64,000 nt of DNA from Minisyncoccota bacterium. Its GTDB lineage: Bacteria; Patescibacteriota; Minisyncoccia; Phycocordibacterales; Phycocordibacteraceae. Of this stretch, positions 1 to 56,952 are shown in pieces. The translations under genes and the position numbers were made by a program. The DNA lies in assembly GCA_035627595.1 (NCBI GenBank), contig DASPLK010000005.1, positions 69,513-133,512 of the forward strand. Reading direction: 5' to 3'. The first letter of the stretch is position 1. Each line of letters begins with the position of its first letter. The notes under the pieces are model-generated. The model did no database searches. It saw only the letters and a program-made list of their open reading frames with translations, and was not told the origin of the DNA.

Positions 1-3
1 GCT

Positions 4-297
4 ATGAAGGAATGGCTCTACATCCGAATACAGGAAGTGCCTGAGCTCGTCTGGAGTGAAAGTAAACCTGCCATGACTAAGGAATGTCCCCCATGTGCGA
101 AGAAACTTCCGCCGCCGCGTGTGATTTGGGTCATGCCGCAGAAACTCAACCGCGGCAGCATCGAACTGGCGCAACAGCTCAAGGAGCGTAGGGCGCTTGG
201 ACATACTCCGTTTAAAGGCATCGGTGTCGAACACGGTGCGGTCAAAATCAAGAAAGTACCTCATTGTGCGGAACTAGCACATCAAATGCCTCCTTAA
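4..297 (+). CDS. hypothetical small protein (weak, at the window edge)
   Basis: 97-aa ORF convergent with the downstream kinase gene; no recognisable motif; may be spurious. Confidence 0.2.
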   Translation: MKEWLYIRIQEVPELVWSESKPAMTKECPPCAKKLPPPRVIWVMPQKLNRGSIELAQQLKERRALGHTPFKGIGVEHGAVKIKKVPHCAELAHQMPP

Positions 298-1144
298 GGA
301 ATTGAATACTGACTTCGGTGCCGACATCTACAGTCTCACCGTCCAGGATAATTGGTATATTTTCACGCGAAGATACGGTAACGCTCCGGGTACGCACTAT
401 GGCGACCTGCTTAGCTTCACGCCACTGCCCGAATGCAGCAGCAGTTGCAAGCGCGAGCACTTCTCCAGCATCGTTCACATCTATGACTGCCGCTTCAAAA
501 ACGTCACGGTCGCTCTCAAGCGAACTTGATACCAATGGACACGTTACCGTAAGTGCCTCAGTGTCGCCCTCGTGCATTTCATTGAACTGGTAGTGGATCT
601 TATCCGCAAACATGTGACTGAGAGCGACCTTCCCGTGCTCAATCATTTCTCCGATATTCCTGGCGCGCAGTGCTTCGCGAACGTGGGTCCAGAGCGCTGG
701 TGCGCCACACACGGCCGCAATGAAGAAGCGATGTCCGGCGACCTCGCCGCCTGAGATCCGCTTTACCGTAGGAGCCATAAGTACAGACCGTAGAATCTCC
801 TGCCACGAGCCTGTCCCGTAGAGCGCTTTTGGGAGGACGTTCATAGTTCCGCCGGGAAGCGGTATGAGAAGCGGTCCCTCTGGGGTACAAAGCTCGGCAG
901 CGCTACGTATGGTGCCGTCTCCGCCTAGGACGATAAGGACATCGAGATCGCGCTTGGCAACTTCTGCGAACGCCAGGTGTAACTCATCAGAAGCGCTGCA
1001 CCAAATACGGACAGGAGTCAGCTCATACTCCTGAAGGATTGCCTCCATTTCAGCTACGGATTCATTACTACAGCTACCGCTTGCGGTATTGAGTACCGCA
1101 CCTATTTTAAGGCTCTTGAGGTCTACCACGCGGAGTTGCTCCAT
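248..1144 (-). CDS. diacylglycerol-kinase-family lipid kinase (DAGK_cat, YegS/BmrU-like)
   Basis: 298 aa; GGDGT motif (LIVLGGDGTIRSAAE) typical of the DAGK catalytic domain; NAD-kinase-like fold layout. Confidence 0.6.
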   Translation of the reverse strand: MEQLRVVDLKSLKIGAVLNTASGSCSNESVAEMEAILQEYELTPVRIWCSASDELHLAFAEVAKRDLDVLIVLGGDGTIRSAAELCTPEGPLLIPLPGGTMNVLPKALYGTGSWQEILRSVLMAPTVKRISGGEVAGHRFFIAAVCGAPALWTHVREALRARNIGEMIEHGKVALSHMFADKIHYQFNEMHEGDTEALTVTCPLVSSSLESDRDVFEAAVIDVNDAGEVLALATAAAFGQWREAKQVAIVRTRSVTVSSRENIPIILDGETVDVGTEVSIQFLKEAFDVLVPHNEVLS

Positions 1145-1193
1145 TAGCTCTACCTTATCAAGCTTGGGTGAACGGGAGGTTAACCTAGTCGAG

Positions 1194-2456
1194 CTATGCG
1201 CTATTCCCCGCTATATATCCGGTGGTCCAGCACAGTTGAAGGGAGTATCCGCCAGATGGTCTGGTGATGTGGAGTAGGTCGCCGATAACAAATAGGTTCG
1301 GGGACCGAAGCGAGCGCATGGTGCGCATATCCATTTCTGTCAGCCGAACGCCGCCGTCTGCAACTACAGCGCGGTCGTACCCCATAAGCCCCGAGATCGT
1401 GACTGGAAGTGCTTTGAACGTATCAACGAGCGCCCGACGCTCTTCCTTGGTTACGCTATGCACCTTCTTTTCAGGATCAACAGGGACAAGTGCGAGCAGT
1501 CCGTCGGTGGTACCCGGAGGGAGAAACTCAGGCGCGACATTTTTAAGAAGCTTGTTCTTGTTCGCATCAAAGTGCTCTCGCAGCTTTGTATCCAGTTCGC
1601 CAATGTTAAATGTGGGGAAGAGGTCTATCGTCGCGGTCACAGGGCCCTCATGGAGCAGATCCGCCACCTTGCCTGCGCTATTGAGTATGGTTGGACCAGA
1701 CAGACCGAAATGGGTGAGGAGAATATTGCCGGTAGCGCTGAATTTCTTCTCCCTCTTTGTATAGAACGTTATCTTCGCTTGCGGAAACGTCTTGCCTACA
1801 AGAGCTTGTATCCAGGCGTCCTTAGCTTTGAGCGGTACGATGGTCGGTGTCGGATCTTCTACGCTATGGCCGAGCTCTCGAAGCCACGCGAAGCCGTCGC
1901 CCGTCGAACCGGTCTCCGGATGCGATACGCCGCCCGTTGCAAATATATATGAGTCAGCAACATACTCTCCCCCGCTTGCTACTATCTTCGCTATCTTTCC
2001 GTCAGCGACAACGACTTTGCGCACCGGCGTACCAAGGCGCACATCAACCTTGCCCCGCTCTACGTATGCGGCAAGCGTACGCACCACATCCTGTGCGTTC
2101 TCGCTTTTGGGAAAAGCGCGCTTACGTGCCTCCACCATGAGCGGCAAGCCGCGAGACTCGAAGAATGTGAATGTATCTTCCATGCCAAATTCTGAGAACG
2201 GCGAATAAAGGAATTGCTCAGCAGATCCGTAGTGCTTAAGGAGCGTTTTAATATCCTCCTCTGCGTTCGTAATATTGCAGCGTCCGCCACCGGTGATGCG
2301 GAGCTTTTTCCCAAGCCTTTCGTTCTTCTCGAACAATAGAACCCGCTTACCACGCTCCGCTGCCCGGCCTGCTGCCATGAGTCCTGCAGCGCCTCCTCCT
2401 ATGACAATAACATCAGGGCGATGGGGGTCGGGGGTCATGTAGCGTTCTTCTTTCAA
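1194..2456 (-). CDS. HI0933/BaiN-family FAD-dependent flavoprotein
   Basis: 420 aa; N-terminal Rossmann motif VIVIGGGAAGLMAA; GGGRCN motif characteristic of HI0933-like flavoproteins. Confidence 0.7.
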   Translation of the reverse strand: MKEERYMTPDPHRPDVIVIGGGAAGLMAAGRAAERGKRVLLFEKNERLGKKLRITGGGRCNITNAEEDIKTLLKHYGSAEQFLYSPFSEFGMEDTFTFFESRGLPLMVEARKRAFPKSENAQDVVRTLAAYVERGKVDVRLGTPVRKVVVADGKIAKIVASGGEYVADSYIFATGGVSHPETGSTGDGFAWLRELGHSVEDPTPTIVPLKAKDAWIQALVGKTFPQAKITFYTKREKKFSATGNILLTHFGLSGPTILNSAGKVADLLHEGPVTATIDLFPTFNIGELDTKLREHFDANKNKLLKNVAPEFLPPGTTDGLLALVPVDPEKKVHSVTKEERRALVDTFKALPVTISGLMGYDRAVVADGGVRLTEMDMRTMRSLRSPNLFVIGDLLHITRPSGGYSLQLCWTTGYIAGNSA

Positions 2457-2464
2457 GCTTACAC

Positions 2465-2785
2465 TTATACGACCTCAATTGGGTATACGTCCGTCGCAGG
2501 CTCTTCGTATGGGTGGACCTCCTTAATAGCCTTAAGCACCGCTTGCAGCGTATCTCCGGTACATACCGTTTCGATGCGGTCCTCGTGCACCTCTTCAAGC
2601 TTCCCAATAGAGCCGATAGTTGGATTTGCGCCCGCTTCAGGCTTGAACCGGCCAATTCCTTTTATTGTAAAAGTGCAGTGCGAGTAATTCCCTATCTTCC
2701 CAGCACCAGCATTGCCTATAGCCTCGCGCAGCTTATCAGCATGGTCTTCGGGAACGTATACCACTAGCTTGTAGCGTTTCTCCAT
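2465..2785 (-). CDS. small PII/CutA-like fold protein (Nif3-insert-domain-like)
   Basis: 106 aa; C-terminal VHPYEEP motif resembles the CutA1 HPYEVPE signature; about 100 aa single domain. Confidence 0.35.
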   Translation of the reverse strand: MEKRYKLVVYVPEDHADKLREAIGNAGAGKIGNYSHCTFTIKGIGRFKPEAGANPTIGSIGKLEEVHEDRIETVCTGDTLQAVLKAIKEVHPYEEPATDVYPIEVV

Positions 2786-2855
2786 TACTCCATTGTATCG
2801 CTATCGCAGGTTTTGCTAAGCGACGCGTCTCATGTGGGATAATTTCGCACGAATT

Positions 2856-2883
2856 AGCTGACCGTCTGGGACGTTATTTGAAC
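2856..2883. repeat. direct repeat copy 1 (agctgaccgtctgggacgttatttgaac)
   Basis: 26/28 identical to 3314-3341; overlaps the stop codon of the nucleotidyltransferase gene. Confidence 0.7.
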
Positions 2884-3287
2884 TTTTTTGAACAATACTC
2901 ATCAATAAGTTGCAGATCTCGAAGATCCTTCTCGCGTTTTAGCTGTAGCTTTGCATCCTTAAGCTGATCAAGACTCATGAAAGGAATCCCTTCTTGGAGG
3001 TAAGCTCCAGGTAGCATTTCTTCAAGGGTAGGATTCTCCTTCATAAAGTCTAGGCTTTGCTTTGCACCTGCTGAGTGATCAGGAGTATCGAGCGTAGTCG
3101 AATACTTTTCATTCCGAATCCACCCGTATTCGCTTTCAAGTCTTGAGAAAAGATCAGGCGATACGAGGAGATCAATATCGCCGGCCTGACGGATTCCGAA
3201 TAGTTCCAGGATCGCACTTCCGCACACCATGTAATGCCCCTCCGGCAAGCCAAGGGCACGGACACGCTCGATATAGGTACTAGCCAT
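2874..3287 (-). CDS. Pol-beta-superfamily minimal nucleotidyltransferase
   Basis: 137 aa; G-S-x11-D-I-D motif (GSAILELFGIRQAGDIDLLV) of minimal NTases; gene bracketed by 28-bp direct repeats. Confidence 0.45.
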   Translation of the reverse strand: MASTYIERVRALGLPEGHYMVCGSAILELFGIRQAGDIDLLVSPDLFSRLESEYGWIRNEKYSTTLDTPDHSAGAKQSLDFMKENPTLEEMLPGAYLQEGIPFMSLDQLKDAKLQLKREKDLRDLQLIDEYCSKKFK

Positions 3288-3313
3288 AAAAAAATTATGG
3301 CACGAGAATGACG

Positions 3314-3341
3314 AGCTGACCGTCTGGGACGATATTCGAAC
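3314..3341. repeat. direct repeat copy 2 (agctgaccgtctgggacgatattcgaac)
   Basis: Same orientation as copy 1; 27 nt upstream of the nucleotidyltransferase start; a weaker third partial copy lies at 3386-3402. Confidence 0.7.
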
Positions 3342-3377
3342 CTCAATATGTAGATAATGCTACCTTTGACGCTTTAC

Positions 3378-4178
3378 CTATACGTGAGCTGACGTCCTGC
3401 TCTTAAACGCTTTTGGTTCCTTGAAGCCATCTAATTGGTCAGGGTGATTAGCTAAGAGATAGCGCCTTATGACTTTTGCCATATATCGATTCTTTAAACG
3501 AAAAGCCCTGACTTCCGCTGGAACGTCACTGAAGGGCTGAGTGGTTTTCGATTTATGACAATCGGGGTCCTTAAAGGTGCCCGAATGTTTGGGACAGAGC
3601 GTCAGATAGTCATGTTGATGCTGATGTATATGATGCGCCTCTCCTGATTTTATGTGCCCCAATATCCTATGGTAATCATCCGACAGTTCACTCAAGACCT
3701 CATCGTCCATTCTCCAAAGGAACACGTATTTGATTAAGTACTCTGATCTCGGAATACTTGGGTCATCTACATACCATACGAACAGCACGTACTTGTTCTT
3801 CTTATACAAAGAAGATTCGCGTATGTCCGCATTCTTGTACTCCGAATTGTAATTAATGATGTTTAGAGATAGCGGCTCCTTTACGCTAAGCTGGCCATTC
3901 TTAAGTAGCTTCAAAGGGCTTGTCTTAAGCTCAACATCCAAGTGCTCTATGTCAGCTGCAGCTGTGTTGTTCTTCCCTATGCCAAAATATCCCTCTTCAA
4001 TCACATAACCGACAAAGGCTTTCGTGCTGACACGAGTAGCCTCATCACTGTCAACTATAGAGGGCATTATCTCCCTCAAGGTCTTACCCTCAAGATCTCG
4101 ACGAGCAATCTCCTCGAGTTCCTGGACGGTCTTTATGCTGCTCAGGTCAATGCGGGCTATATACAGAAAGTGTAACAC
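3378..4178 (-). CDS. MutH/Sau3AI-family (PD-(D/E)xK) endonuclease, putative restriction endonuclease
   Basis: 266 aa, GTG start; LDVELKTSP motif matches the MutH catalytic DxExK region (MutH: LGVELKTIP); preceding G-rich segment GYFGIGKN resembles the MutH N-terminal motif; divergent from the m5C methyltransferase gene. Confidence 0.6.
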   Translation of the reverse strand: MLHFLYIARIDLSSIKTVQELEEIARRDLEGKTLREIMPSIVDSDEATRVSTKAFVGYVIEEGYFGIGKNNTAAADIEHLDVELKTSPLKLLKNGQLSVKEPLSLNIINYNSEYKNADIRESSLYKKNKYVLFVWYVDDPSIPRSEYLIKYVFLWRMDDEVLSELSDDYHRILGHIKSGEAHHIHQHQHDYLTLCPKHSGTFKDPDCHKSKTTQPFSDVPAEVRAFRLKNRYMAKVIRRYLLANHPDQLDGFKEPKAFKSRTSAHV

Positions 4179-4258
4179 CCTGAATATCGCCGCAAGATTA
4201 TTACCGTGTAAATGGCCGACTTGATCAAGTTTTATCCAGCTGATAGAATGGGCAAATC

Positions 4259-5530
4259 ATGAAATCAGGCGGCGATAAGATAAGAGTGGTCGAGCTATTC
4301 GCTGGAGTTGGCGGGTTCAGATTAGGGCTCGAAGGATCAAAGGGTAACCGTAAACCGCATCATTCCCACTTTGAGACCGTATGGTTCAACCAATGGGAAC
4401 CCTCCACCAAACGACAGCACGCACATGAGACCTACGCTAGGAATTTTGGTCATATCGATGAATACACCAATGAGGACATCGCGAAAGTGACTGGTCAGGT
4501 TCCTGACCACGATCTCCTAGTAGGTGGCTTTCCTTGCCAGGACTATTCAGTGGCCAGGAACCTCTCTTCTTCTGCAGGCCTTGAAGGAAAGAAAGGTGTG
4601 CTTTGGTGGTCAATCCACGAGATCTTGAATATAAAGGGTTCCAAGGCACCTAACTATTTGATGCTTGAGAATGTAGACCGTCTACTTGTCTCCCCTGCTA
4701 GTCGTCGAGGCAAGGATTTTGCGATTATCCTTTCTTCGCTTATTAAGCTCGGCTATGTGATCGAGTGGCGTGTTATCAATGCTGCTGAGTACGGATTTCC
4801 ACAAAGAAGGAAGCGGACATTCATACTGGGATACAAAAAAGGTTCACCTATAGAAAAGAGGTTCCGAAAACTTAACGACCCTGAGAAGTGGCTCATAAAG
4901 GATGGCGTCGTACAGCAATCATTCCCTGCTGTCTTAGACGGAGATATCCGAACATTCACGATAGACTCTGATCCCGTCATTGTTTCTAAGGAGTTCAACC
5001 TTGAGAAGCCCCAGACCTCCCCATTCGCTAATACTGGTGTCATGGTCGATGGAAGGGTCTATACCGCCCGAGTAACTCCGAACTATAAGGGAAAATACGC
5101 AACTCTTGGTGATGTACTTCTTCCAGAATCCGAGGTTCCGAAGGAATACTACATTGATAAGGAAGATCTTCCCCGCTGGGTATACCTAAAGGGAGCGAAG
5201 AATGAACCTAGGAAGGGTTCTGATGGGTTCGAGTTCACATACAAAGAGGGCGCGATGTCATTCCCGGATTCCCCAACAAAGGCCTCGAGGACTATCATCA
5301 CCGCTGAAGGCGGTAAGACACCTTCCCGTTTCAAGCACGTCGTTAAGACAAAGAAGGGTTATCGACGTCTAACCCCTATCGAATTGGAACGGCTTTGCAT
5401 GTTCCCTGACAATCACACACAGGGCCACCCTGATGCGAGGCGTGCTTTCTTTATGGGCAATGCTCTTGTCGTTGGTGTAATAGATGGACTAGGCAAAGCC
5501 CTAGTAAAGCTCCACACATCTAAGATTTAA
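4259..5530 (+). CDS. dcm: DNA (cytosine-5)-methyltransferase
   Basis: 423 aa; motif I ELFAGVGGF; motif IV GGFPCQDYS; motif VI ENV; motif VIII QRRKRTFILGY; C-terminal GNALVVGVI. Confidence 0.9.
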   Translation: MKSGGDKIRVVELFAGVGGFRLGLEGSKGNRKPHHSHFETVWFNQWEPSTKRQHAHETYARNFGHIDEYTNEDIAKVTGQVPDHDLLVGGFPCQDYSVARNLSSSAGLEGKKGVLWWSIHEILNIKGSKAPNYLMLENVDRLLVSPASRRGKDFAIILSSLIKLGYVIEWRVINAAEYGFPQRRKRTFILGYKKGSPIEKRFRKLNDPEKWLIKDGVVQQSFPAVLDGDIRTFTIDSDPVIVSKEFNLEKPQTSPFANTGVMVDGRVYTARVTPNYKGKYATLGDVLLPESEVPKEYYIDKEDLPRWVYLKGAKNEPRKGSDGFEFTYKEGAMSFPDSPTKASRTIITAEGGKTPSRFKHVVKTKKGYRRLTPIELERLCMFPDNHTQGHPDARRAFFMGNALVVGVIDGLGKALVKLHTSKI

Positions 5531-5975
5531 TTGCGGACCGCACACGCTTCGCAGCCAAAGAAGGATTCTTCTTGATCTCGCATTCCCATACGACAACGAC
5601 CTTCCATCCATCCTTTCTTAGTCCCGACTCTTTTCGTGAGTCACGCTCTTTATTCCTCTTGAACTTCTCCTTCCAGAATCCCTGATTCGATTTTGGTATA
5701 GGTAGCTTACAGTGAGTGCATCTATGCCAGTAACATCCATGCACGAATACAGCTACCTTCTTACCTTTGAATACCAAATCAGGCCTCCCGTGTTCTGTCT
5801 TGAGATGTAGCCGATAACCCCTGGCCCCTAGACTAAAGAGTGCTTTCCGCAACGCTATCTCAGGCTTTGTATTCGAACCTTTATTCGCACTCATAACATT
5901 AGAGGTCTTCCCTTCTTTCGGAATTGGAGATCTTCCGTCGCGAATATAGGCTCTTCTCGATTCGAGTCTATTCAT
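5520..5975 (-). CDS. vsr: very-short-patch-repair (Vsr) endonuclease
   Basis: RPDLVF...KKVAVFVHGCYWHRC...VVVVWECE matches the Vsr core; a start at the internal Met (5894) is likely; 3' end overlaps dcm convergently. Confidence 0.85.
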   Translation of the reverse strand: MNRLESRRAYIRDGRSPIPKEGKTSNVMSANKGSNTKPEIALRKALFSLGARGYRLHLKTEHGRPDLVFKGKKVAVFVHGCYWHRCTHCKLPIPKSNQGFWKEKFKRNKERDSRKESGLRKDGWKVVVVWECEIKKNPSLAAKRVRSAIKS

Positions 5976-6066
5976 GCATACAGGATAAGCTTGTACGTGT
6001 ATCCTGCCCAGAGTAACTTATAGCAACCCAATTTGCTCTCATTTTCACGTAGGACGTATTAATACA

Positions 6067-6097
6067 GAAGAGCCCCGATTGTGGATCGGGGCTCTTC
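6067..6097 (-). terminator. stem-loop terminator downstream of the GHKL ATPase gene
   Basis: gaagagccccgat tgtg gatcggggctcttc, 13-bp perfect stem. Confidence 0.55.
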
Positions 6098-6111
6098 AAA
6101 TGATGAGTAAT

Positions 6112-7665
6112 TTAGTCCAGAAGGACCTTGAGATTCTTGGACATGGTTTCCAGCACCGCATCAAGAAGTGCGGTAGTCTCCGCCGTGCTGTACTTCAGCT
6201 TCGCTTCCCCAAGAGCGTAGGCTAGGAAGGACACTGCGTTCACGAGCTCCTGCTCGTCACGCTGAGCAAACACAACCTTCTGGAAGAAGGGATGTTCATT
6301 ATTCCAGGTGATGACTGTCATGCCACCTTCTTTCTCTGCTGTGAATATATGTCCATGTGCGCCAAGGGCAGCATTCTCGAAGCGAGCTGTGCCACTAAGA
6401 GTGCCAGCACCACGCTGATGCGCACCGACTTGGTAAGCAGACACCTCCACTACCCCCCTTGGGGACCTGCGTTTTGATGAAGGCGGGTTCGCGGCCTCAA
6501 TAGACGGTGCTCGGTCCAGCAACTTCGTCTTCTGGGCAATTGACCCTTCTGCTTCAGAGAAGTCGAGCTCGGTAGACGCCACAGGAGTCTTCCTTCGAGA
6601 GGAGTACTTTGCGCGCAGCCGGTCAACTTCTGGCATTACTTCCTTGGCAATCTTGTCGAGGAATGCTTGGGACGGGTTCACATTGTGCTTTGTGTAGTTG
6701 ATTCCCATTACCGCATCAAGCCGACCTGACACGAGAATTTCAGCACGCACACGGTTCAGGCTGTTATGGCGCACCCACAACCCGTTAAGGTCGTCCGCTG
6801 AGGCGACCTGACGATAATTGCGCAGCACATAGAAACCTTGCGTATCCTGTCCAACAGTCTTCTTCTTTCCCTTTGCTGGAAGTTCGTCAGGCAAACGAAA
6901 GACCTTCACTGTGAACTGCTCAGAAACTCCGGATCCAAGCTTGATTTCGAATGTCTTATTGAACTCCAGGTCCGAGGAATAACCTGATTCCTCGACATAA
7001 CGACCATCGAGCCACATAGGGTCAATGATTGATGCTTCCTTGCCGTTTACGACAATCTTCTTCCCAGCACGAATGAAGTAGCGGTAGATTTCGCCGAGAT
7101 GGTGGCGCAAACCATTCTCAAATTCCTCAATCTCGACACGTTCAAGCTGGTCGCAGTTCTTAAGAACAACAACGGTCCCGTGCGCCCCCAGTCCGTAACC
7201 TTGTGCGATTTTCTCCTGCTCGGATGTAGCCACACCGCGATGAATATCGAAAGAATTCGATTCTTCCATCACATCCAAATCCATAATTCCGACAAGAACT
7301 GGTGACCCTTCCGTCCGGGTGTAGACCTCAACACGCTTTGCAATTGAGATTGAGCCAGTCACAAGACCCATGCCAAAACGACCGAGATCTGAGTCCACAT
7401 TGCGTTCGGTGAGTGATCCGAGACGAAGGGCCTGTTCCAAGACCTTCTCATCCATTCCCGCACCGTTATCGCACACGACTATGGTCGCCTTCCCCGCCTT
7501 CTGATCCCCAGAAATCAGCACTTCGACGACCGATGCGTCTGCATCGAGTGAATTATCGACGATGTCGGAGATTGCGACCTTATTCTCGTAACCACTGTAC
7601 CGAAGAGAAGCCATTAGCTTCCCTGCGTTTGGCGTATTCGCCTGATTGAACTTTTCGTTCTGCAT
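6112..7665 (-). CDS. MutL/MORC-like GHKL (Bergerat-fold) ATPase
   Basis: Motif I IVDNSLDA; motif II VVCDNGAGMD; motif III GRFGMGLVTGSIS as in the MutL N-terminus. Likely start is Met at 7665 (MQNEKFN) with GAGG 13 nt upstream; the ORF track extends to 7827 through the repeats. Confidence 0.7.
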   Translation of the reverse strand: MQNEKFNQANTPNAGKLMASLRYSGYENKVAISDIVDNSLDADASVVEVLISGDQKAGKATIVVCDNGAGMDEKVLEQALRLGSLTERNVDSDLGRFGMGLVTGSISIAKRVEVYTRTEGSPVLVGIMDLDVMEESNSFDIHRGVATSEQEKIAQGYGLGAHGTVVVLKNCDQLERVEIEEFENGLRHHLGEIYRYFIRAGKKIVVNGKEASIIDPMWLDGRYVEESGYSSDLEFNKTFEIKLGSGVSEQFTVKVFRLPDELPAKGKKKTVGQDTQGFYVLRNYRQVASADDLNGLWVRHNSLNRVRAEILVSGRLDAVMGINYTKHNVNPSQAFLDKIAKEVMPEVDRLRAKYSSRRKTPVASTELDFSEAEGSIAQKTKLLDRAPSIEAANPPSSKRRSPRGVVEVSAYQVGAHQRGAGTLSGTARFENAALGAHGHIFTAEKEGGMTVITWNNEHPFFQKVVFAQRDEQELVNAVSFLAYALGEAKLKYSTAETTALLDAVLETMSKNLKVLLD

Positions 7666-7670
7666 ATTTG

Positions 7671-7706
7671 TTTTATGCCTCGACGACGCGTGAGCGCCAC
7701 AAAGAC
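7671..7706. repeat. 36-bp direct repeat A (ttttatgcctcgacgacgcgtgagcgccacaaagac)
   Basis: 34/36 identical to 7790-7825; sits in the 5' leader/RBS region of the GHKL ATPase gene. Confidence 0.75.
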
Positions 7707-7789
7707 GGTTATGAGCACATTTGTAAAGCACAAAGGCCGAGCCGCAGAAGCGACCGGCAAAGAAGTTAAGTAGAGATATCCATAGGTAA

Positions 7790-7825
7790 TTTTGTGCCTC
7801 GACGACGCGCGAGCGCCACAAAGAC
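7790..7825. repeat. 36-bp direct repeat B (ttttgtgcctcgacgacgcgcgagcgccacaaagac)
   Basis: Direct copy of repeat A, 119 bp away; only two copies, so not a CRISPR array. Confidence 0.75.
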
Positions 7826-7860
7826 AATTACTGATAACAGCCGTAGTATACCGCGCATGA

Positions 7861-8292
7861 ACAACCTCGTCAAAACAGGTAACGCGTCCAGGACGCTCGA
7901 GACTAAGTATCCCTTCCCTTCCGGAGATTGAGTCCCGTCTCACTGACGGCTTCTCTTCCGGCCTAATTCGCAAAGAACTCTGCCAAGAGAAGATGAGAGA
8001 AGTCGCTAACAAACGCGCAGAACTAGAGCAGCAGATTGAAGATACTGAATCAAAGAACGGAGTATCATCTGTGACTTTCGAACAGATACAAAACGTGTTT
8101 ATAGAAGGCAGTAGAGCCGCAGAAAAGTATTTGCTCGCCGATGATACGGAAAAGCGAGAGATGCTCCAAAAACTACTTTCGAACGCTACTATCGAAAACG
8201 GAAAAGTGGCGCAGATACAATACAAAAGTCCGTATCAACTACTTGCACTGACCCCTAAAAACGCTGACTTTTCGACTTTGCTGCGGGACTAG
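7861..8292 (+). pseudogene. gene remnant abutting the tRNA-Gln 3' end (possible recombinase/integrase C-terminal fragment)
   Basis: Frame is open from 7861 with no start; first ATG at 7993 gives a 99-aa charged coiled-coil-like tail ending inside the tRNA 3' end; no catalytic motifs visible. Confidence 0.25.
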
Positions 8293-8351
8293 GACTCGAA
8301 CCTAGATAAACGCCTCCAGAGAGCGCTGTCCTACCATTAGACGATCCCGCA
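8281..8351 (-). tRNA. tRNA-Gln (anticodon CUG)
   Basis: Cloverleaf with U1:A72 and G73 (Gln identity elements); D-arm CGUCUAAUGGUAGGAC; anticodon loop CUCUGGA; T-arm CUAGGUUCGAGUCCUAG; about 71 nt. Confidence 0.6.
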
Positions 8352-8454
8352 ATCAGCAAAGCGGCAGGAGCCGCTCTGCTAGCTAGAAGATACACGAAAA
8401 TAGGCTCGGAGAAAAGCCTGCGGCTCATGCTATAGTTTCGGGACAACTGAATAC

Positions 8455-8551
8455 GTATCAAGAGCGCGGCGAGGCATCTGGGCCTTTGAACCGCCAGCAA
8501 CCATTCCAAACGGAACCGGTGCTTCCAGCCCCAACCCATGGGGAGCGATGC
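8455..8551 (+). promoter_or_regulatory. SAM-I (S-box) riboswitch aptamer upstream of metK
   Basis: GUAUCAAGAGCGCGGCGAGG...UGGGCCUUUGAACCGCCAGCAACC...GGUGCUUCCAGCC...GAUGC matches the SAM-I core (UAUCAAGAG, GGAGG, GGCCC, GAA.CC.GCAACC, GGUGC..UCC, P1-closing GAUG). Confidence 0.55.
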
Positions 8552-8565
8552 AGTAATGTCTCACG

Positions 8566-8596
8566 TCTCCTTGGTCGGGAGATTATTTCATTTAGT
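8566..8596 (+). terminator. candidate riboswitch expression-platform terminator
   Basis: tctcc ttggtcg ggaga followed by ttatttcattt; short stem. Confidence 0.35.
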
Positions 8597-8605
8597 CCTA
8601 GTCTC

Positions 8606-9658
8606 ATGTTCCACCTGCTTACCCACTACACTACCGAAAGCGTTACCAGAGGCCATCCTGATAAGGTGTGCGACCAGATTTCAGACGCCATTCTCGACGC
8701 CTGCCTAGAGCAGGATCCCGCTAGCCGCGTGGCGGTGGAGGCGTTTGGCAGCCACGGAACGCTTATGATCGGAGGCGAGATCACAACTCGCGCATCGGTA
8801 GACTATGCGGACATAGCGCGGAAGGTATACGAGGATATCGGATACACGGAGCCCCTGGACATCCTCTCCCGTGTCGTCACCCAGTCAGGTGATATCGCGC
8901 AGGGTGTCAACACAGGTGGAGCGGGCGACCAAGGCATCATGTACGGCTACGCGACCAACGAGACTGAAGAGTACCTTCCTCAGGGCGTAGTCCTCTCGCA
9001 CGCGCTTGCCAGGAAGATTGAAGACCTGCGTACGAGCGGCACTCTCCCCTACCTAAGACCAGACGGCAAAACGCAGGTGACCATTCGTAACGGAAAACTC
9101 CTCACCGCTCTCACATCGACCCAGCACACAGAGGAAGCGGAGCTTGAGTCCATTCGAAAAGATCTCAAGGAACACCTCTTTGCGCCGGTGCTTGGTGATA
9201 CATCTGAGATAGAGCTCCTCGTTAATCCGACCGGACGCTTCGTCCAGGGAGGCTTTGAGGCGGACGCTGGTCTCACGGGCCGCAAGATCATGGTGGATAC
9301 ATACGGAGGTCTCCTGCCGCATGGCGGCGGCGCATTCAGTGGAAAGGACTCCACAAAGGTGGATCGCTCAGCTGCATACATGTGCCGCTTCGTTGCCAAG
9401 AACCTAGTCGCAAATGGATACGGCACCAAGGTGCTCGTCTCGGTCGCATACGCCATCGGCCGCGTGGAGCCGGTGATGGTAGAAGCGTTCGATGAGTCTG
9501 GAAAGAACCTCTCGGATATTGTGAACAAGCACTTCGACTTCCGCCCCCGCGCAATCGAAGAGCGTCTCTCACTCAGAAAGGCCCAGTTCAGGGACACAGC
9601 TGCGTACGGACACTTCGGCGTGGAAGGAAGACCCTGGGAAGATATAGTTGCGCTCTAA
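8606..9658 (+). CDS. metK: S-adenosylmethionine synthetase
   Basis: TESVTRGHPDKVCDQISDAILDA N-terminal motif; GGGAFSGKD signature; about 350 aa. The ORF-track start at 8486 overlaps the riboswitch and is rejected. Confidence 0.9.
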   Translation: MFHLLTHYTTESVTRGHPDKVCDQISDAILDACLEQDPASRVAVEAFGSHGTLMIGGEITTRASVDYADIARKVYEDIGYTEPLDILSRVVTQSGDIAQGVNTGGAGDQGIMYGYATNETEEYLPQGVVLSHALARKIEDLRTSGTLPYLRPDGKTQVTIRNGKLLTALTSTQHTEEAELESIRKDLKEHLFAPVLGDTSEIELLVNPTGRFVQGGFEADAGLTGRKIMVDTYGGLLPHGGGAFSGKDSTKVDRSAAYMCRFVAKNLVANGYGTKVLVSVAYAIGRVEPVMVEAFDESGKNLSDIVNKHFDFRPRAIEERLSLRKAQFRDTAAYGHFGVEGRPWEDIVAL

Positions 9659-52424: not shown

Positions 52425-52501
52425 CCATCCTTAGCTCAGTTGGTTAGAGCACGGAGCTTATACCTCCGCGGTCCCTGGTTCGAGTCCAGGAGGATGGACC
52501 A
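52425..52501 (+). tRNA. tRNA-Ile (anticodon UAU), CCA encoded
   Basis: CCAUCCUUAGCUCAGUUGGUUAGAGCA; anticodon stem CGGAG/CUCCG with loop CUUAUAC; T-arm CCUGGUUCGAGUCCAGG; acceptor CCAUCCU/AGGAUGG; ACCA. Confidence 0.7.
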
Positions 52502-56531: not shown

Positions 56532-56944
56532 AGGGGGTGACCGGTTTTGACGGTCTTGATCTTTGAGAGACGTGCGACGTAGTGGAAGCATGCTGACCAC
56601 TTTAATCCCGCAGGCAAAAACAAACGCAAACAACACTGTTGCACGCGGAGTACTCTCACCTATCCAGATGAGCGATCTTACTCCGTTCGCTTTCGCGCGC
56701 GCCTAACGGCCCCCGCATAGCGGCGTTGTATTCGTCCCGGTTCCCATAGCGGACGAATACGGCGGAATCTTCTATGGGACCAGCAAGGAGAGTGCCTCGG
56801 CTCTTGGCTCGGTATTAGAGACTCAGGAGGGAGCGGTTTCGTCCGCGTTCCTACGCCCCTCCTTACAATGAACGTGGGCTACGCGTCGTAGATTCGTCCT
56901 TAAAGAGAGATTCGGACGGGGGTTCGATTCCCCCCACCTCCACA
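56532..56944 (+). ncRNA. ssrA: tmRNA (transfer-messenger RNA)
   Basis: 5' GGGGGUGACCGGUUUUGACGG like the E. coli GGGGCUGA...UUCGACGG; 3' GGACGGGGGUUCGAUUCCCCCCACCUCCAC tRNA-like T-arm/acceptor; internal ORF ending ...PFAFARA-UAA; directly downstream of smpB. Confidence 0.8.
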
Positions 56945-56952
56945 TACAAGCA

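Follow-up and report, generated by a model that had tools for sequence, protein, structure and literature searches.

Eukaryotic MORC proteins are central to the silencing of transposons and methylated DNA, and their bacterial relatives, the MORC/paraMORC ATPases, are almost uncharacterised. The closest described systems are those of Iyer, Abhiman & Aravind 2008 (PMC2292703), whose paper places MORC/paraMORC GHKL ATPases beside cytosine methylases, Vsr and nucleases, recalls the MutL-MutH and MutL-Vsr interactions, and predicts that the bacterial proteins work in restriction-like systems. We analysed a stretch of 64,000 nucleotides from a Minisyncoccota bacterium (assembly GCA_035627595.1, contig DASPLK010000005.1, positions 69,513 to 133,512; hereafter the window), in which a gene for such an ATPase lies in an island that also encodes Vsr, a C5 cytosine methyltransferase (Dcm) and a MutH-like nuclease. 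A conserved and covarying hairpin, of which the leader of this gene carries two divergent copies, is linked exclusively to the ATPase family in the 1.4 Mb searched. With some reservation, we favour reading the locus as a single-gene cassette that is self-contained and moves horizontally, made up of a promoter, a structured leader, the ATPase gene and a terminator. Features of the window are collected in Table 1, and homologous loci in other genomes are denoted by L-numbers.

The maximal open reading frame (ORF) of the ATPase runs on the minus strand from a TTG at 7827 to 6112, and the first ATG within it is at 7665. A first-pass annotation of the window, made from the letters alone, took the long frame as the annotated gene and judged the ATG at 7665 to be the more plausible start. 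The frame does extend to 7827, but the public annotation already begins at 7665, the 517-residue product being 100% identical to 'ATP-binding protein [Candidatus Paceibacterota bacterium]'. Further support for this start comes from the length of the homologues (about 220 full-length proteins of 500-525 residues), from their alignment with the query from end to end, and from the conservation (at least 90%) of P12 and N13, both of which lie upstream of the next methionine; the same two residues rule out a start at Met18 (7614). The N-terminal peptide MQNEKFNQ.NTPNAGKLMASLRY is common to close relatives. At 50% identity the family comprises 2,878 representatives (E<=1e-30), most of them of about 500 residues and matched end to end.

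The N-terminal part of the protein carries all four Bergerat motifs, which had already been recognised from the sequence as standing in MutL order and are present across 58 homologues. These are D34-IVD-N38-SLDA (motif I, with D34, N38 and D41), D66-N-G68-A-G70-M (motif II), G95-RF-G98-M-G100 (motif III) and G163-T164 (motif IV), all invariant or nearly so. Pfam HATPase_c_3 matches residues 26-142 (E 2.4e-22), and the expected order of the motifs together with the Bergerat alpha/beta sandwich fold places the protein in the GHKL superfamily. An AlphaFold2 model built from the family alignment (predicted local distance difference test score, pLDDT, 84; predicted template modelling score, pTM, 0.68) was used for structure comparison, in which the matches aligned over 278-323 residues, those to the ATPase modules of MORC2, MORC3 and SMCHD1 over 300-323. 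On the strength of these alignments residues 176-345 are assigned to an S5-fold transducer, the domain for which the first-pass annotation had proposed structure prediction. The C-terminal 350 or so residues, which it could not relate to anything, resolve into this S5 domain, a disordered linker and a dimerisation domain that resembles that of Hsp90. K326, in 'NYTK', is invariant among the 58 sequences, so that the GHKL domain is followed by an S5-fold domain with a conserved basic residue, the combination by which MORC/paraMORC proteins are recognised; by analogy with MutL and GyrB, K326 would be the lysine that contacts the gamma-phosphate. The C-terminal domain, when modelled alone (pLDDT 85), matches Hsp90 C-terminal dimerisation domains in structure and holds invariant N455, H458 and F460 within 'WNxxHPF'. 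Weaker matches of this domain to zincin-like folds are unsupported because it has no HExxH motif. No nuclease domain was found in the ATPase, and Pfam gave no match past residue 142. As modelled, the architecture is a MORC-like N and M module joined to an Hsp90-like C domain, and this last assignment appears to be new. Because MutL, Hsp90 and MORC proteins behave in this way, we infer by analogy a constitutive C-terminal dimer whose N-terminal domains would close on ATP to clamp nucleic acid.

Upstream of the gene, the minus strand carries in order a promoter, hairpin B, a mini-ORF, a terminator-like hairpin, hairpin A and the ATG at 7665. The promoter, TTGACG-17-TATACT, is the best promoter-like site in 5400-8400, and TTGACA/TATAAT boxes stand at the equivalent place in L001, L005-L008, L085 and L159. 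The two 36-bp direct repeats pointed out in the first-pass annotation are genuine, the 36-nt core giving 2 matches in the window and 0 in 100 shuffles; flanks included, each copy measures 41 nt, the two share 90% identity, and 119 nt separate them. Repeat B is not translated through from 7827; it heads a mini-ORF and a terminator-like hairpin, and it matches by position the distal hairpin of the two-copy leaders found in relatives. The stop of the mini-ORF lies 7 nt ahead of the terminator-like hairpin, which none of 200 shuffles equalled in stability and which is followed by a U-rich tail at 7725-7735. The hairpin of repeat A holds in its 3' arm a GAGG (7678-7681) located 12 nt ahead of the ATG, and in L085 and L086 the same 30 nt form a perfect 13-bp stem that pairs all of the GAGG. 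We used local folds in place of the minimum free energy (MFE) fold of the whole leader because the latter was no better than that of shuffles (z -1.7) and paired the flanks of both repeats implausibly. Judged from sequence, the window and at least nine relatives share the anatomy of a putative attenuator, in which a promoter, a short ORF and an intrinsic terminator precede the regulated gene. At the other end a 13-bp terminator-like hairpin closes the ATPase unit, which makes the gene a transcription unit separate from vsr.

The same leader order is present in L159 (92% protein identity) and L085 (86%), and in Saccharibacteria and other members of the candidate phyla radiation (CPR) at 47-50% identity (L001, L005-L008, L158 and L150), whose leaders have textbook terminator hairpins with U-tracts. 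The two-copy order also occurs in L014, a Pseudomonadales member; L086 (74%) has a single hairpin copy, and about half of the hairpin-bearing loci have the proximal copy only. The mini-ORFs that follow the distal hairpin in L085, L159, L001, L005-L008, L014 and L158 read MNIST, MDT, MNTS, MKT, MYT and MNT, each ending in a stop (MDT, MNTS, MKT and MYT in the CPR relatives at 47-50% identity), and a hairpin with a U-tract stands at the equivalent place in these relatives' leaders. Beyond the CPR the consensus of the hairpin is sharply defined, with the canonical lower stem 5'-UUGGU/AUCGA-3' (U-A, U·G, G-C, G·U and U-A); the pairs below and above it vary while keeping complementarity, and the loop is variable. 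The pattern TTGGT-N4-26-ATCGA was found at 39 of the 75 loci and shows a 117-fold enrichment in the 260 nt that precede the starts (58 in 19.4 kb against 61 in 2.38 Mb), and the upper stem extends by 2.65 bp on average compared with 0.69 +/- 0.14 bp in shuffles.

A covariance model, R1, built from the canonical hairpins gave 56 matches at E<=1 in a search of both strands of 1.4 Mb. All of them are on the strand of the ATPase gene and within about 200 nt of its start, with none elsewhere, and they are spread over 40 loci from about 12 phyla (Acidobacteriota, Verrucomicrobiota, Ignavibacteria/Bacteroidota, Alpha- and Gammaproteobacteria, Planctomycetota, Chloroflexota, Elusimicrobia, Firmicutes, Melainabacteria, Binatota and Patescibacteria). 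In the R1 alignment 88.6% of the cells are paired, as against 35-49% with slid partners, 7 of the 11 pairs change on both sides, and compensatory cells number 96 compared with 34 +/- 6 in shuffles (0 of 500 reach 96), these counts being biased upward since the alignment was fitted to the model. The two independent tests, motif enrichment and upper-stem extension, agree with it. The U·G and G·U pairs of the lower stem are invariant (54/54 and 53/54 sequences). The frequent G·U pairs, together with the exclusive sense-strand orientation, point to an RNA hairpin and not to a DNA operator. Of the original suggestion that repeat A lies in the 5' untranslated or ribosome-binding region as an operator or a site of translational control, the position and the conserved element stand, and a DNA operator is very unlikely.

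Rfam 15 gave nothing in the window leader at gathering threshold, and at E<=10 the leaders of the window, L005 and L028 returned only chance-level matches to eukaryotic snoRNA, miRNA and sRNA families. A literature search for a conserved leader of this kind or a defence function of bacterial MORC proteins likewise found nothing specific. With no Rfam family and no paper found, the leader hairpin and its duplicated arrangement around a mini-ORF and terminator appear to be new. Metagenome contigs were scanned for CTTGGTGGC-N4-12-GTTATCGAGG and gave 68 matches, of which L150 is the sole true two-copy leader; the other 67 were chance matches inside GC-rich coding sequence, so the scan says little on wider occurrence. 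Other leader arrangements were also seen. Ignavibacteria/Bacteroidota members have three hairpin copies per leader (L012, 9791-9968; L030, 9813-9988). A second leader class (L015, L023, L027, L028 and L035) has no mini-ORF but one more 5' box, CCUUGGUG, whose complement CACCAAGG lies in the terminator loop and 3' arm; pairing of the two may act as an antiterminator.

The company of the gene in other genomes points to autonomy. Housekeeping genes make up most of the surroundings of 63 family members, no partner being constant among them, and in a set of 80 genome loci the majority of members lack a nearby Dcm, Vsr or MutH. The Dcm/MutH module was sampled in four contexts, with the ATPase next door in L158 and L159 and without it in L157 and L160; L157 has neither the ATPase nor Gabija beside the module. 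In L160 a Gabija-like pair, consisting of an OLD-family ATPase/TOPRIM nuclease and a UvrD helicase, occupies the slot of the ATPase (6768-9423). Identities to the window proteins are discordant (92% for the ATPase, 61% for Dcm and 65% for the MutH-like nuclease in L159; 74%, 71% and 81%, respectively, in L086), which argues that the cassette and the restriction-modification (R-M) module shuffle independently. Apart from the window, L056 is the only locus at which Vsr stands beside the ATPase, and none of the close relatives has it there. The functional tie to vsr and to the MutH-like nuclease that the initial reading had implied is therefore not conserved across the family. The predominantly solitary, cassette-like lifestyle of this ATPase family appears to be new, and in the window the cassette belongs to the cargo of a serine-recombinase island, now decayed, at tRNA-Gln. 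In L014, L019, L050, L067, L068, L070 and L072 a partner gene lies directly 3' of the ATPase gene, with a gap of 1-7 nt; its product of 410-710 residues has RNA polymerase alpha-CTD-like, sigma-70 region-4-like and winged-helix domains, and the members with this abutting partner mostly have no leader hairpin.

Where R-M modules do stand beside family members, they are Sau3AI/MutH-like in the window, L086, L008, L158, L159, L014 and L069 (at 7-8 kb from the ATPase gene in L069), BglII-like in L085, and BamHI with an N4/N6 methyltransferase in L020. All are assigned to enzyme families in which the type members cleave at sites with a GATC core, and because several of the loci share descent this association would amount to 2 or 3 independent events. 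The recurrence of such company is a second testable lead.

How the leader might act can be proposed as follows. Since the lower stem is invariant and the hairpin crosses phyla only together with the gene, its ligand would be either encoded by the cassette or universal, and since the ATPase is the only product of the cassette, autogenous control is the most economical hypothesis. The cassette would encode a dimeric, ATP-gated MORC-type clamp, the synthesis of which is restrained by the leader. One trans-acting factor, most likely the ATPase itself, would bind both hairpin copies. With the distal copy occupied, the mini-ORF would go untranslated, the terminator could form and premature termination would be favoured; with the proximal copy occupied, initiation at the main ORF would be prevented. 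The resulting negative feedback at two levels would keep a potentially harmful ATPase scarce. More tentatively, the hairpin may be the cognate RNA ligand of the ATPase, the clamp then both regulating its own synthesis and being held inactive by abundant terminated leader RNA. If so, the cassette would be a single-gene, RNA-gated conflict or defence module and would give the first indication of a MORC-type GHKL clamp controlled by a dedicated structured RNA. Based on the mobility of the cassette, its company in defence islands and the relation of the protein to MzaB and paraMORC proteins, our assessment is that the cellular role of the ATPase is most likely in genome conflict or defence, and not as a subunit of the neighbouring R-M system. 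A compact covarying motif that is absent from Rfam and tied to one gene family in about a dozen phyla offers direct experimental handles, and should the ATPase bind its own leader, the hairpin would be a ready ligand for work on the loading or restraint of MORC-type clamps.

Several observations weigh against this interpretation. The window copies of the hairpin score below 8.3 bits with R1 and go undetected even with filters off, and those of L085 reach only 15.6 bits (E 0.19). The window hairpins are a divergent variant, UUUGU...GUCGA, with a U·C mismatch at the consensus G-C position, and covariation within the Paceibacteria clade is not significant because it offers only 4 distinct sequences. 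Membership of the window copies in the canonical motif on the basis of the model was accordingly dropped; their assignment rests on position, architecture, the intermediate form in L085 and a G-C to U-A exchange in L086. In the window the U-tract of the terminator-like hairpin is poor (CUUUGUGCUUU) and a simple terminator scan missed the hairpin, and in the window and its relatives the 7-20 nt from the mini-ORF stop to the terminator stem are a marginal reach for a terminating ribosome. The 12 nt between GAGG and the ATG are a long spacing for a Shine-Dalgarno (SD) sequence, and other phyla have a clear AGGAG that follows directly on the 3' side of the hairpin and is left unsequestered, for which reasons we describe repeat A as abutting the ribosome-binding region. 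On the side of the protein, just two PADLOC models matched, MzaB partially and REase_II weakly (E 3e-4), and it is by inference that RNA binding by a GHKL/MORC protein, toxicity and a defence role enter the proposal. The general base of motif I is Glu in MutL, MORC, Hsp90 and GyrB. In 57 of the 58 family members it is Asp (residue 34 here), and ATP turnover may for this reason be atypical.

Among the alternatives, a leader that needs no factor is possible, though we hold it to be doubtful. The G·U-rich hairpins would then gate ribosomes by themselves, as an RNA thermometer or a sensor of translation or ribosomes, and translation of the mini-ORF would set read-through of the terminator. An SD sequence, start, stop and terminator do follow one another in the leaders of many loci, the stems are rich in wobble pairs, the GAGG is paired in the Paceibacteria clade, and no trans factor would have to travel with the cassette. 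However, such gating leaves unexplained why five lower-stem pairs, two of them wobble pairs, are invariant across phyla while the rest of the hairpin covaries. Moreover, the SD sequence is outside the hairpin in most phyla, many members have a single hairpin with neither mini-ORF nor terminator, and in the mini-ORF leader class no convincing alternative pairing was found that could serve as an antiterminator.

E. coli MutL activates both MutH and Vsr. By extension, the ATPase could be a MutL-like matchmaker that activates the half-size MutH/Sau3AI-like nuclease, and possibly Vsr, by means of ATP, which we consider unlikely. The shared GATC-core assignment of the R-M modules at family loci speaks for it, as does the frequency of Dcm at distances of up to 5 kb, about 10% of core-family loci, which greatly exceeds the level estimated for chance. 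The nuclease is also without the allosteric C-terminal half of Sau3AI, relatives that align end to end at 25% identity are found in Dcm-Vsr-GHKL-HNH-SNF2 helicase-EcoRII_N operons, and exactly such a role was proposed by Iyer et al. 2008 (PMC2292703). But of about 70 loci, more than 55 are free of Dcm, Vsr and MutH over 5-10 kb, and the nuclease partner is elsewhere swapped for the unrelated folds of BglII and BamHI. The occurrence of the same Dcm/MutH module in L157 and L160 with no ATPase, the discordant histories of the two units, each of which has its own promoter and terminator, and the restriction of the Vsr adjacency to two loci likewise count against activation.

An arrangement like a type III toxin-antitoxin (TA) system, in which a short terminated RNA sequesters the ATPase and loss of this RNA on infection frees a growth-arresting clamp, is quite improbable. 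The order of promoter, repeat, terminator and effector gene resembles that of toxIN-type loci, the same hairpin would be present in the short RNA and in the mRNA, and the cassette is mobile and found among defence cargo; against this, the repeats are not tandem but 119 nt apart, the effector is a GHKL ATPase and not an endoribonuclease of the ToxN/AbiQ type, about half of the hairpin-bearing loci have the proximal copy only, and toxicity and RNA processing are purely conjectural. Finally, that the repeats are DNA-level features (recombination scars, attachment (att) sites of the island or an operator) is barely credible in spite of the adjoining serine-recombinase remnant and tRNA gene and of the 90% identity of the window copies over 41 nt including flanks, since the elements keep a fixed distance from the ATG at loci with no nearby recombinase or tRNA, G·U pairs would be A·C mismatches on the other strand, 56 of 56 R1 matches have the sense orientation, positions 1-8000 of the window contain no repeat of the tRNA 3' end of at least 11 nt, such as a duplicated att site would leave, and no regulator gene travels with the cassette.

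Table 1. Features of the ATPase locus and its island (positions in the window)
Feature	Position	Strand	Details
C5 cytosine methyltransferase (Dcm)	4259..5530	+	Pfam DNA_methylase E 1.4e-58; PADLOC MTase_II 507 bits
Half-size MutH/Sau3AI-like nuclease	3378..4178	-	Pfam MutH; NCBIfam Sau3AI 177 bits vs cutoff 300
Vsr endonuclease	5520..5975	-	Pfam Vsr; NCBIfam TIGR00632 126 bits vs cutoff 97.85
Intrinsic-terminator-like hairpin	6067..6097	-	13-bp stem; free energy (dG) -24.8 kcal/mol, z -8.1
GHKL ATPase gene	6112..7665	-	517 aa plus stop
C-terminal domain, Hsp90-CTD-like	6115..6387	-	residues 427-517; three strands, then three helices
Linker, helical then disordered	6388..6630	-	~residues 346-426; pLDDT <50 for 391-423
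S5-fold transducer domain	6631..7140	-	~residues 176-345; invariant R282, R285, R307, E309, D317, K326
N-terminal strap and GHKL (Bergerat) ATP-binding domain	7141..7665	-	~residues 1-175
Proximal leader hairpin (repeat A core)	7677..7706	-	full repeat 7671-7711; dG -12.8 kcal/mol
Terminator-like (putative attenuator) hairpin, GCCGGUCGC-UUCU-GCGGCUCGGC	7736..7758	-	dG -17.3 kcal/mol, z -3.3
Mini-ORF, ATG GAT ATC TCT ACT TAA (MDIST, stop)	7766..7783	-	5 codons; read from sequence
Distal leader hairpin (repeat B core)	7796..7825	-	full repeat 7790-7830; dG -15.2 kcal/mol, z -2.2
Sigma-70-type promoter, TTGACG-17 nt-TATACT	7845..7873	-	matches 10/12 positions
Large serine recombinase, C-terminal remnant	7861..8292	+	~143 codons, open frame
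tRNA-Gln(CUG)	8280..8351	-	ARAGORN and Rfam

The island that carries the cassette extends over about 2870-8280, with a GC content of 0.48 compared with 0.54-0.55 in the flanks, and lies near metK with its S-adenosylmethionine (SAM) riboswitch. Profile matches and the hairpin at 6067-6097 agree with the initial description of the ATPase gene as adjoining vsr across a stem-loop and sharing the island with a MutH-like nuclease. This nuclease matches positions 8-234 of the 475 of the Sau3AI profile and is thus without the C-terminal half of Sau3AI; its 348 homologues are mostly of 245-260 residues. In CPR genomes its family is always divergently paired with a C5-methyltransferase and usually stands beside a large serine recombinase. 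In L008, L086 and L157-L160 the Dcm orthologue has a MutH-like gene as its partner, and the pair together with an intact serine recombinase, a common module in CPR genomes, looks like a mobile mini R-M element. In the window the recombinase is reduced to a remnant, of which a 99-residue ORF matches a 500-residue protein of L023 (E 5e-16) that has Resolvase, Recombinase and Zn_ribbon_recom domains; intact recombinases are found in the same islands of L086 and L157-L160. The remnant lies between tRNA-Gln and the ATPase promoter and overlaps the 3' end of the tRNA by 13 nt. L159 has no such remnant and has an intact recombinase downstream. A tRNA gene stands directly ahead of the ATPase promoter in L085, L086 and L159.

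At the other edge of the island, a 28-nt direct repeat (AGCTGACCGTCTGGGACG.TATT.GAAC, at 2856-2883 and 3314-3341, 93% identical) brackets a 137-residue ORF (2874-3287, minus strand) with a nucleotidyltransferase-like GS...DID motif. This ORF had no Pfam, PADLOC or NCBIfam match, and the repeats may be the borders at which a small gene cassette was inserted. The riboswitch before metK is of the SAM-I class (8452-8555; 49 bits, above the gathering score), and the window also holds a tRNA-Ile with anticodon UAU (52425-52501) and a transfer-messenger RNA (56533-56945).

Compared with the systems outlined at the beginning, the ATPase resembles prokaryotic MORC/paraMORC proteins, and paraMORC1 in particular, in its GHKL and S5 domains with intact motifs, in a distinct conserved extension past S5, and in the recurrence of its family near cytosine methylases, Vsr and restriction nucleases. 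It differs from them in that most family members are solitary among housekeeping genes. MORC/paraMORC operons with a superfamily 2 (SF2) helicase and/or a nuclease have no counterpart here, as neither a helicase nor an HNH gene was found beside the window gene or beside most of the family. A dedicated structured leader is a further difference, not being described in the available text of PMC2292703. Relatives that align end to end at 23-25% identity, among them L155 (P. putida plasmid NZ_CP043577), L156 (Agrobacterium plasmid NZ_CP109970), L074-L077 and L082, stand in a gene set of Dcm, Vsr, the GHKL ATPase, an HNH endonuclease, a SNF2/DEAD helicase and a protein with an EcoRII N-terminal domain, a set that probably corresponds to the paraMORC1-type system described in Iyer et al. 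2008.

The other GHKL proteins are more distant. Unlike eukaryotic MORC2, MORC3 and SMCHD1 (14-16% identity), the ATPase has no CW zinc finger, coiled-coil insertion or hinge, and it has an Hsp90-like C-terminal domain and Asp as the predicted catalytic base. The MutL equivalog model TIGR00585 gives 30.1 bits against a cutoff of 180 and covers residues 33-80 only; the C-terminal dimerisation/endonuclease domain of MutL is missing, and so is a conserved neighbourhood. MzaB of the Mza anti-phage system is the best PADLOC and NCBIfam match (E 3e-24 and 1e-27) over GHKL and S5, but the MzaB equivalog model gives 96.6 bits against a cutoff of 850, and no mzaA, mzaC, mzaD or mzaE neighbours are present, true Mza-like gene sets being confined to the most distant loci (L080, L083 and L084). 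A restriction enzyme of the BbrUII/HgiDII type was considered and ruled out, as that model gives 49.5 bits against a cutoff of 550 over residues 30-215 only, and such enzymes have about 660 residues with a C-terminal nuclease region, compared with 517 residues and no nuclease domain here. With Hsp90/HtpG the protein shares, in the model, the fold of the C-terminal dimerisation domain; at 6-10% identity there is no sequence-level relation, Pfam HSP90 did not match the ATPase at E<=0.01, and its N and M domains are closer to MORC.

For the leader, known analogues are the erm and cat leaders, the B. subtilis TRAP protein acting on both trp attenuation and trpE translation, and the operators of phage coat proteins and RegA. 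The leader shares with these a short ORF before a terminator, a hairpin at the ribosome-binding region and one element at two points of putative control. It differs from them in that the mini-ORF is of 3-6 codons with no conserved peptide, and in that the candidate operator consists of two copies of a hairpin whose lower stem is invariant and includes wobble pairs, with no Rfam match. It is also unlike ToxIN, since there is neither a tandem repeat array nor a ToxN-type endoribonuclease. By its sequence matches, the ATPase falls outside the MutL, MzaB and BbrUII/HgiDII models and is best described as an uncharacterised new member among the known MORC/paraMORC-type proteins. Its family of about 2,900 representatives is the simplest version of such systems found, a single gene with no fixed partner that brings its own regulatory RNA along.

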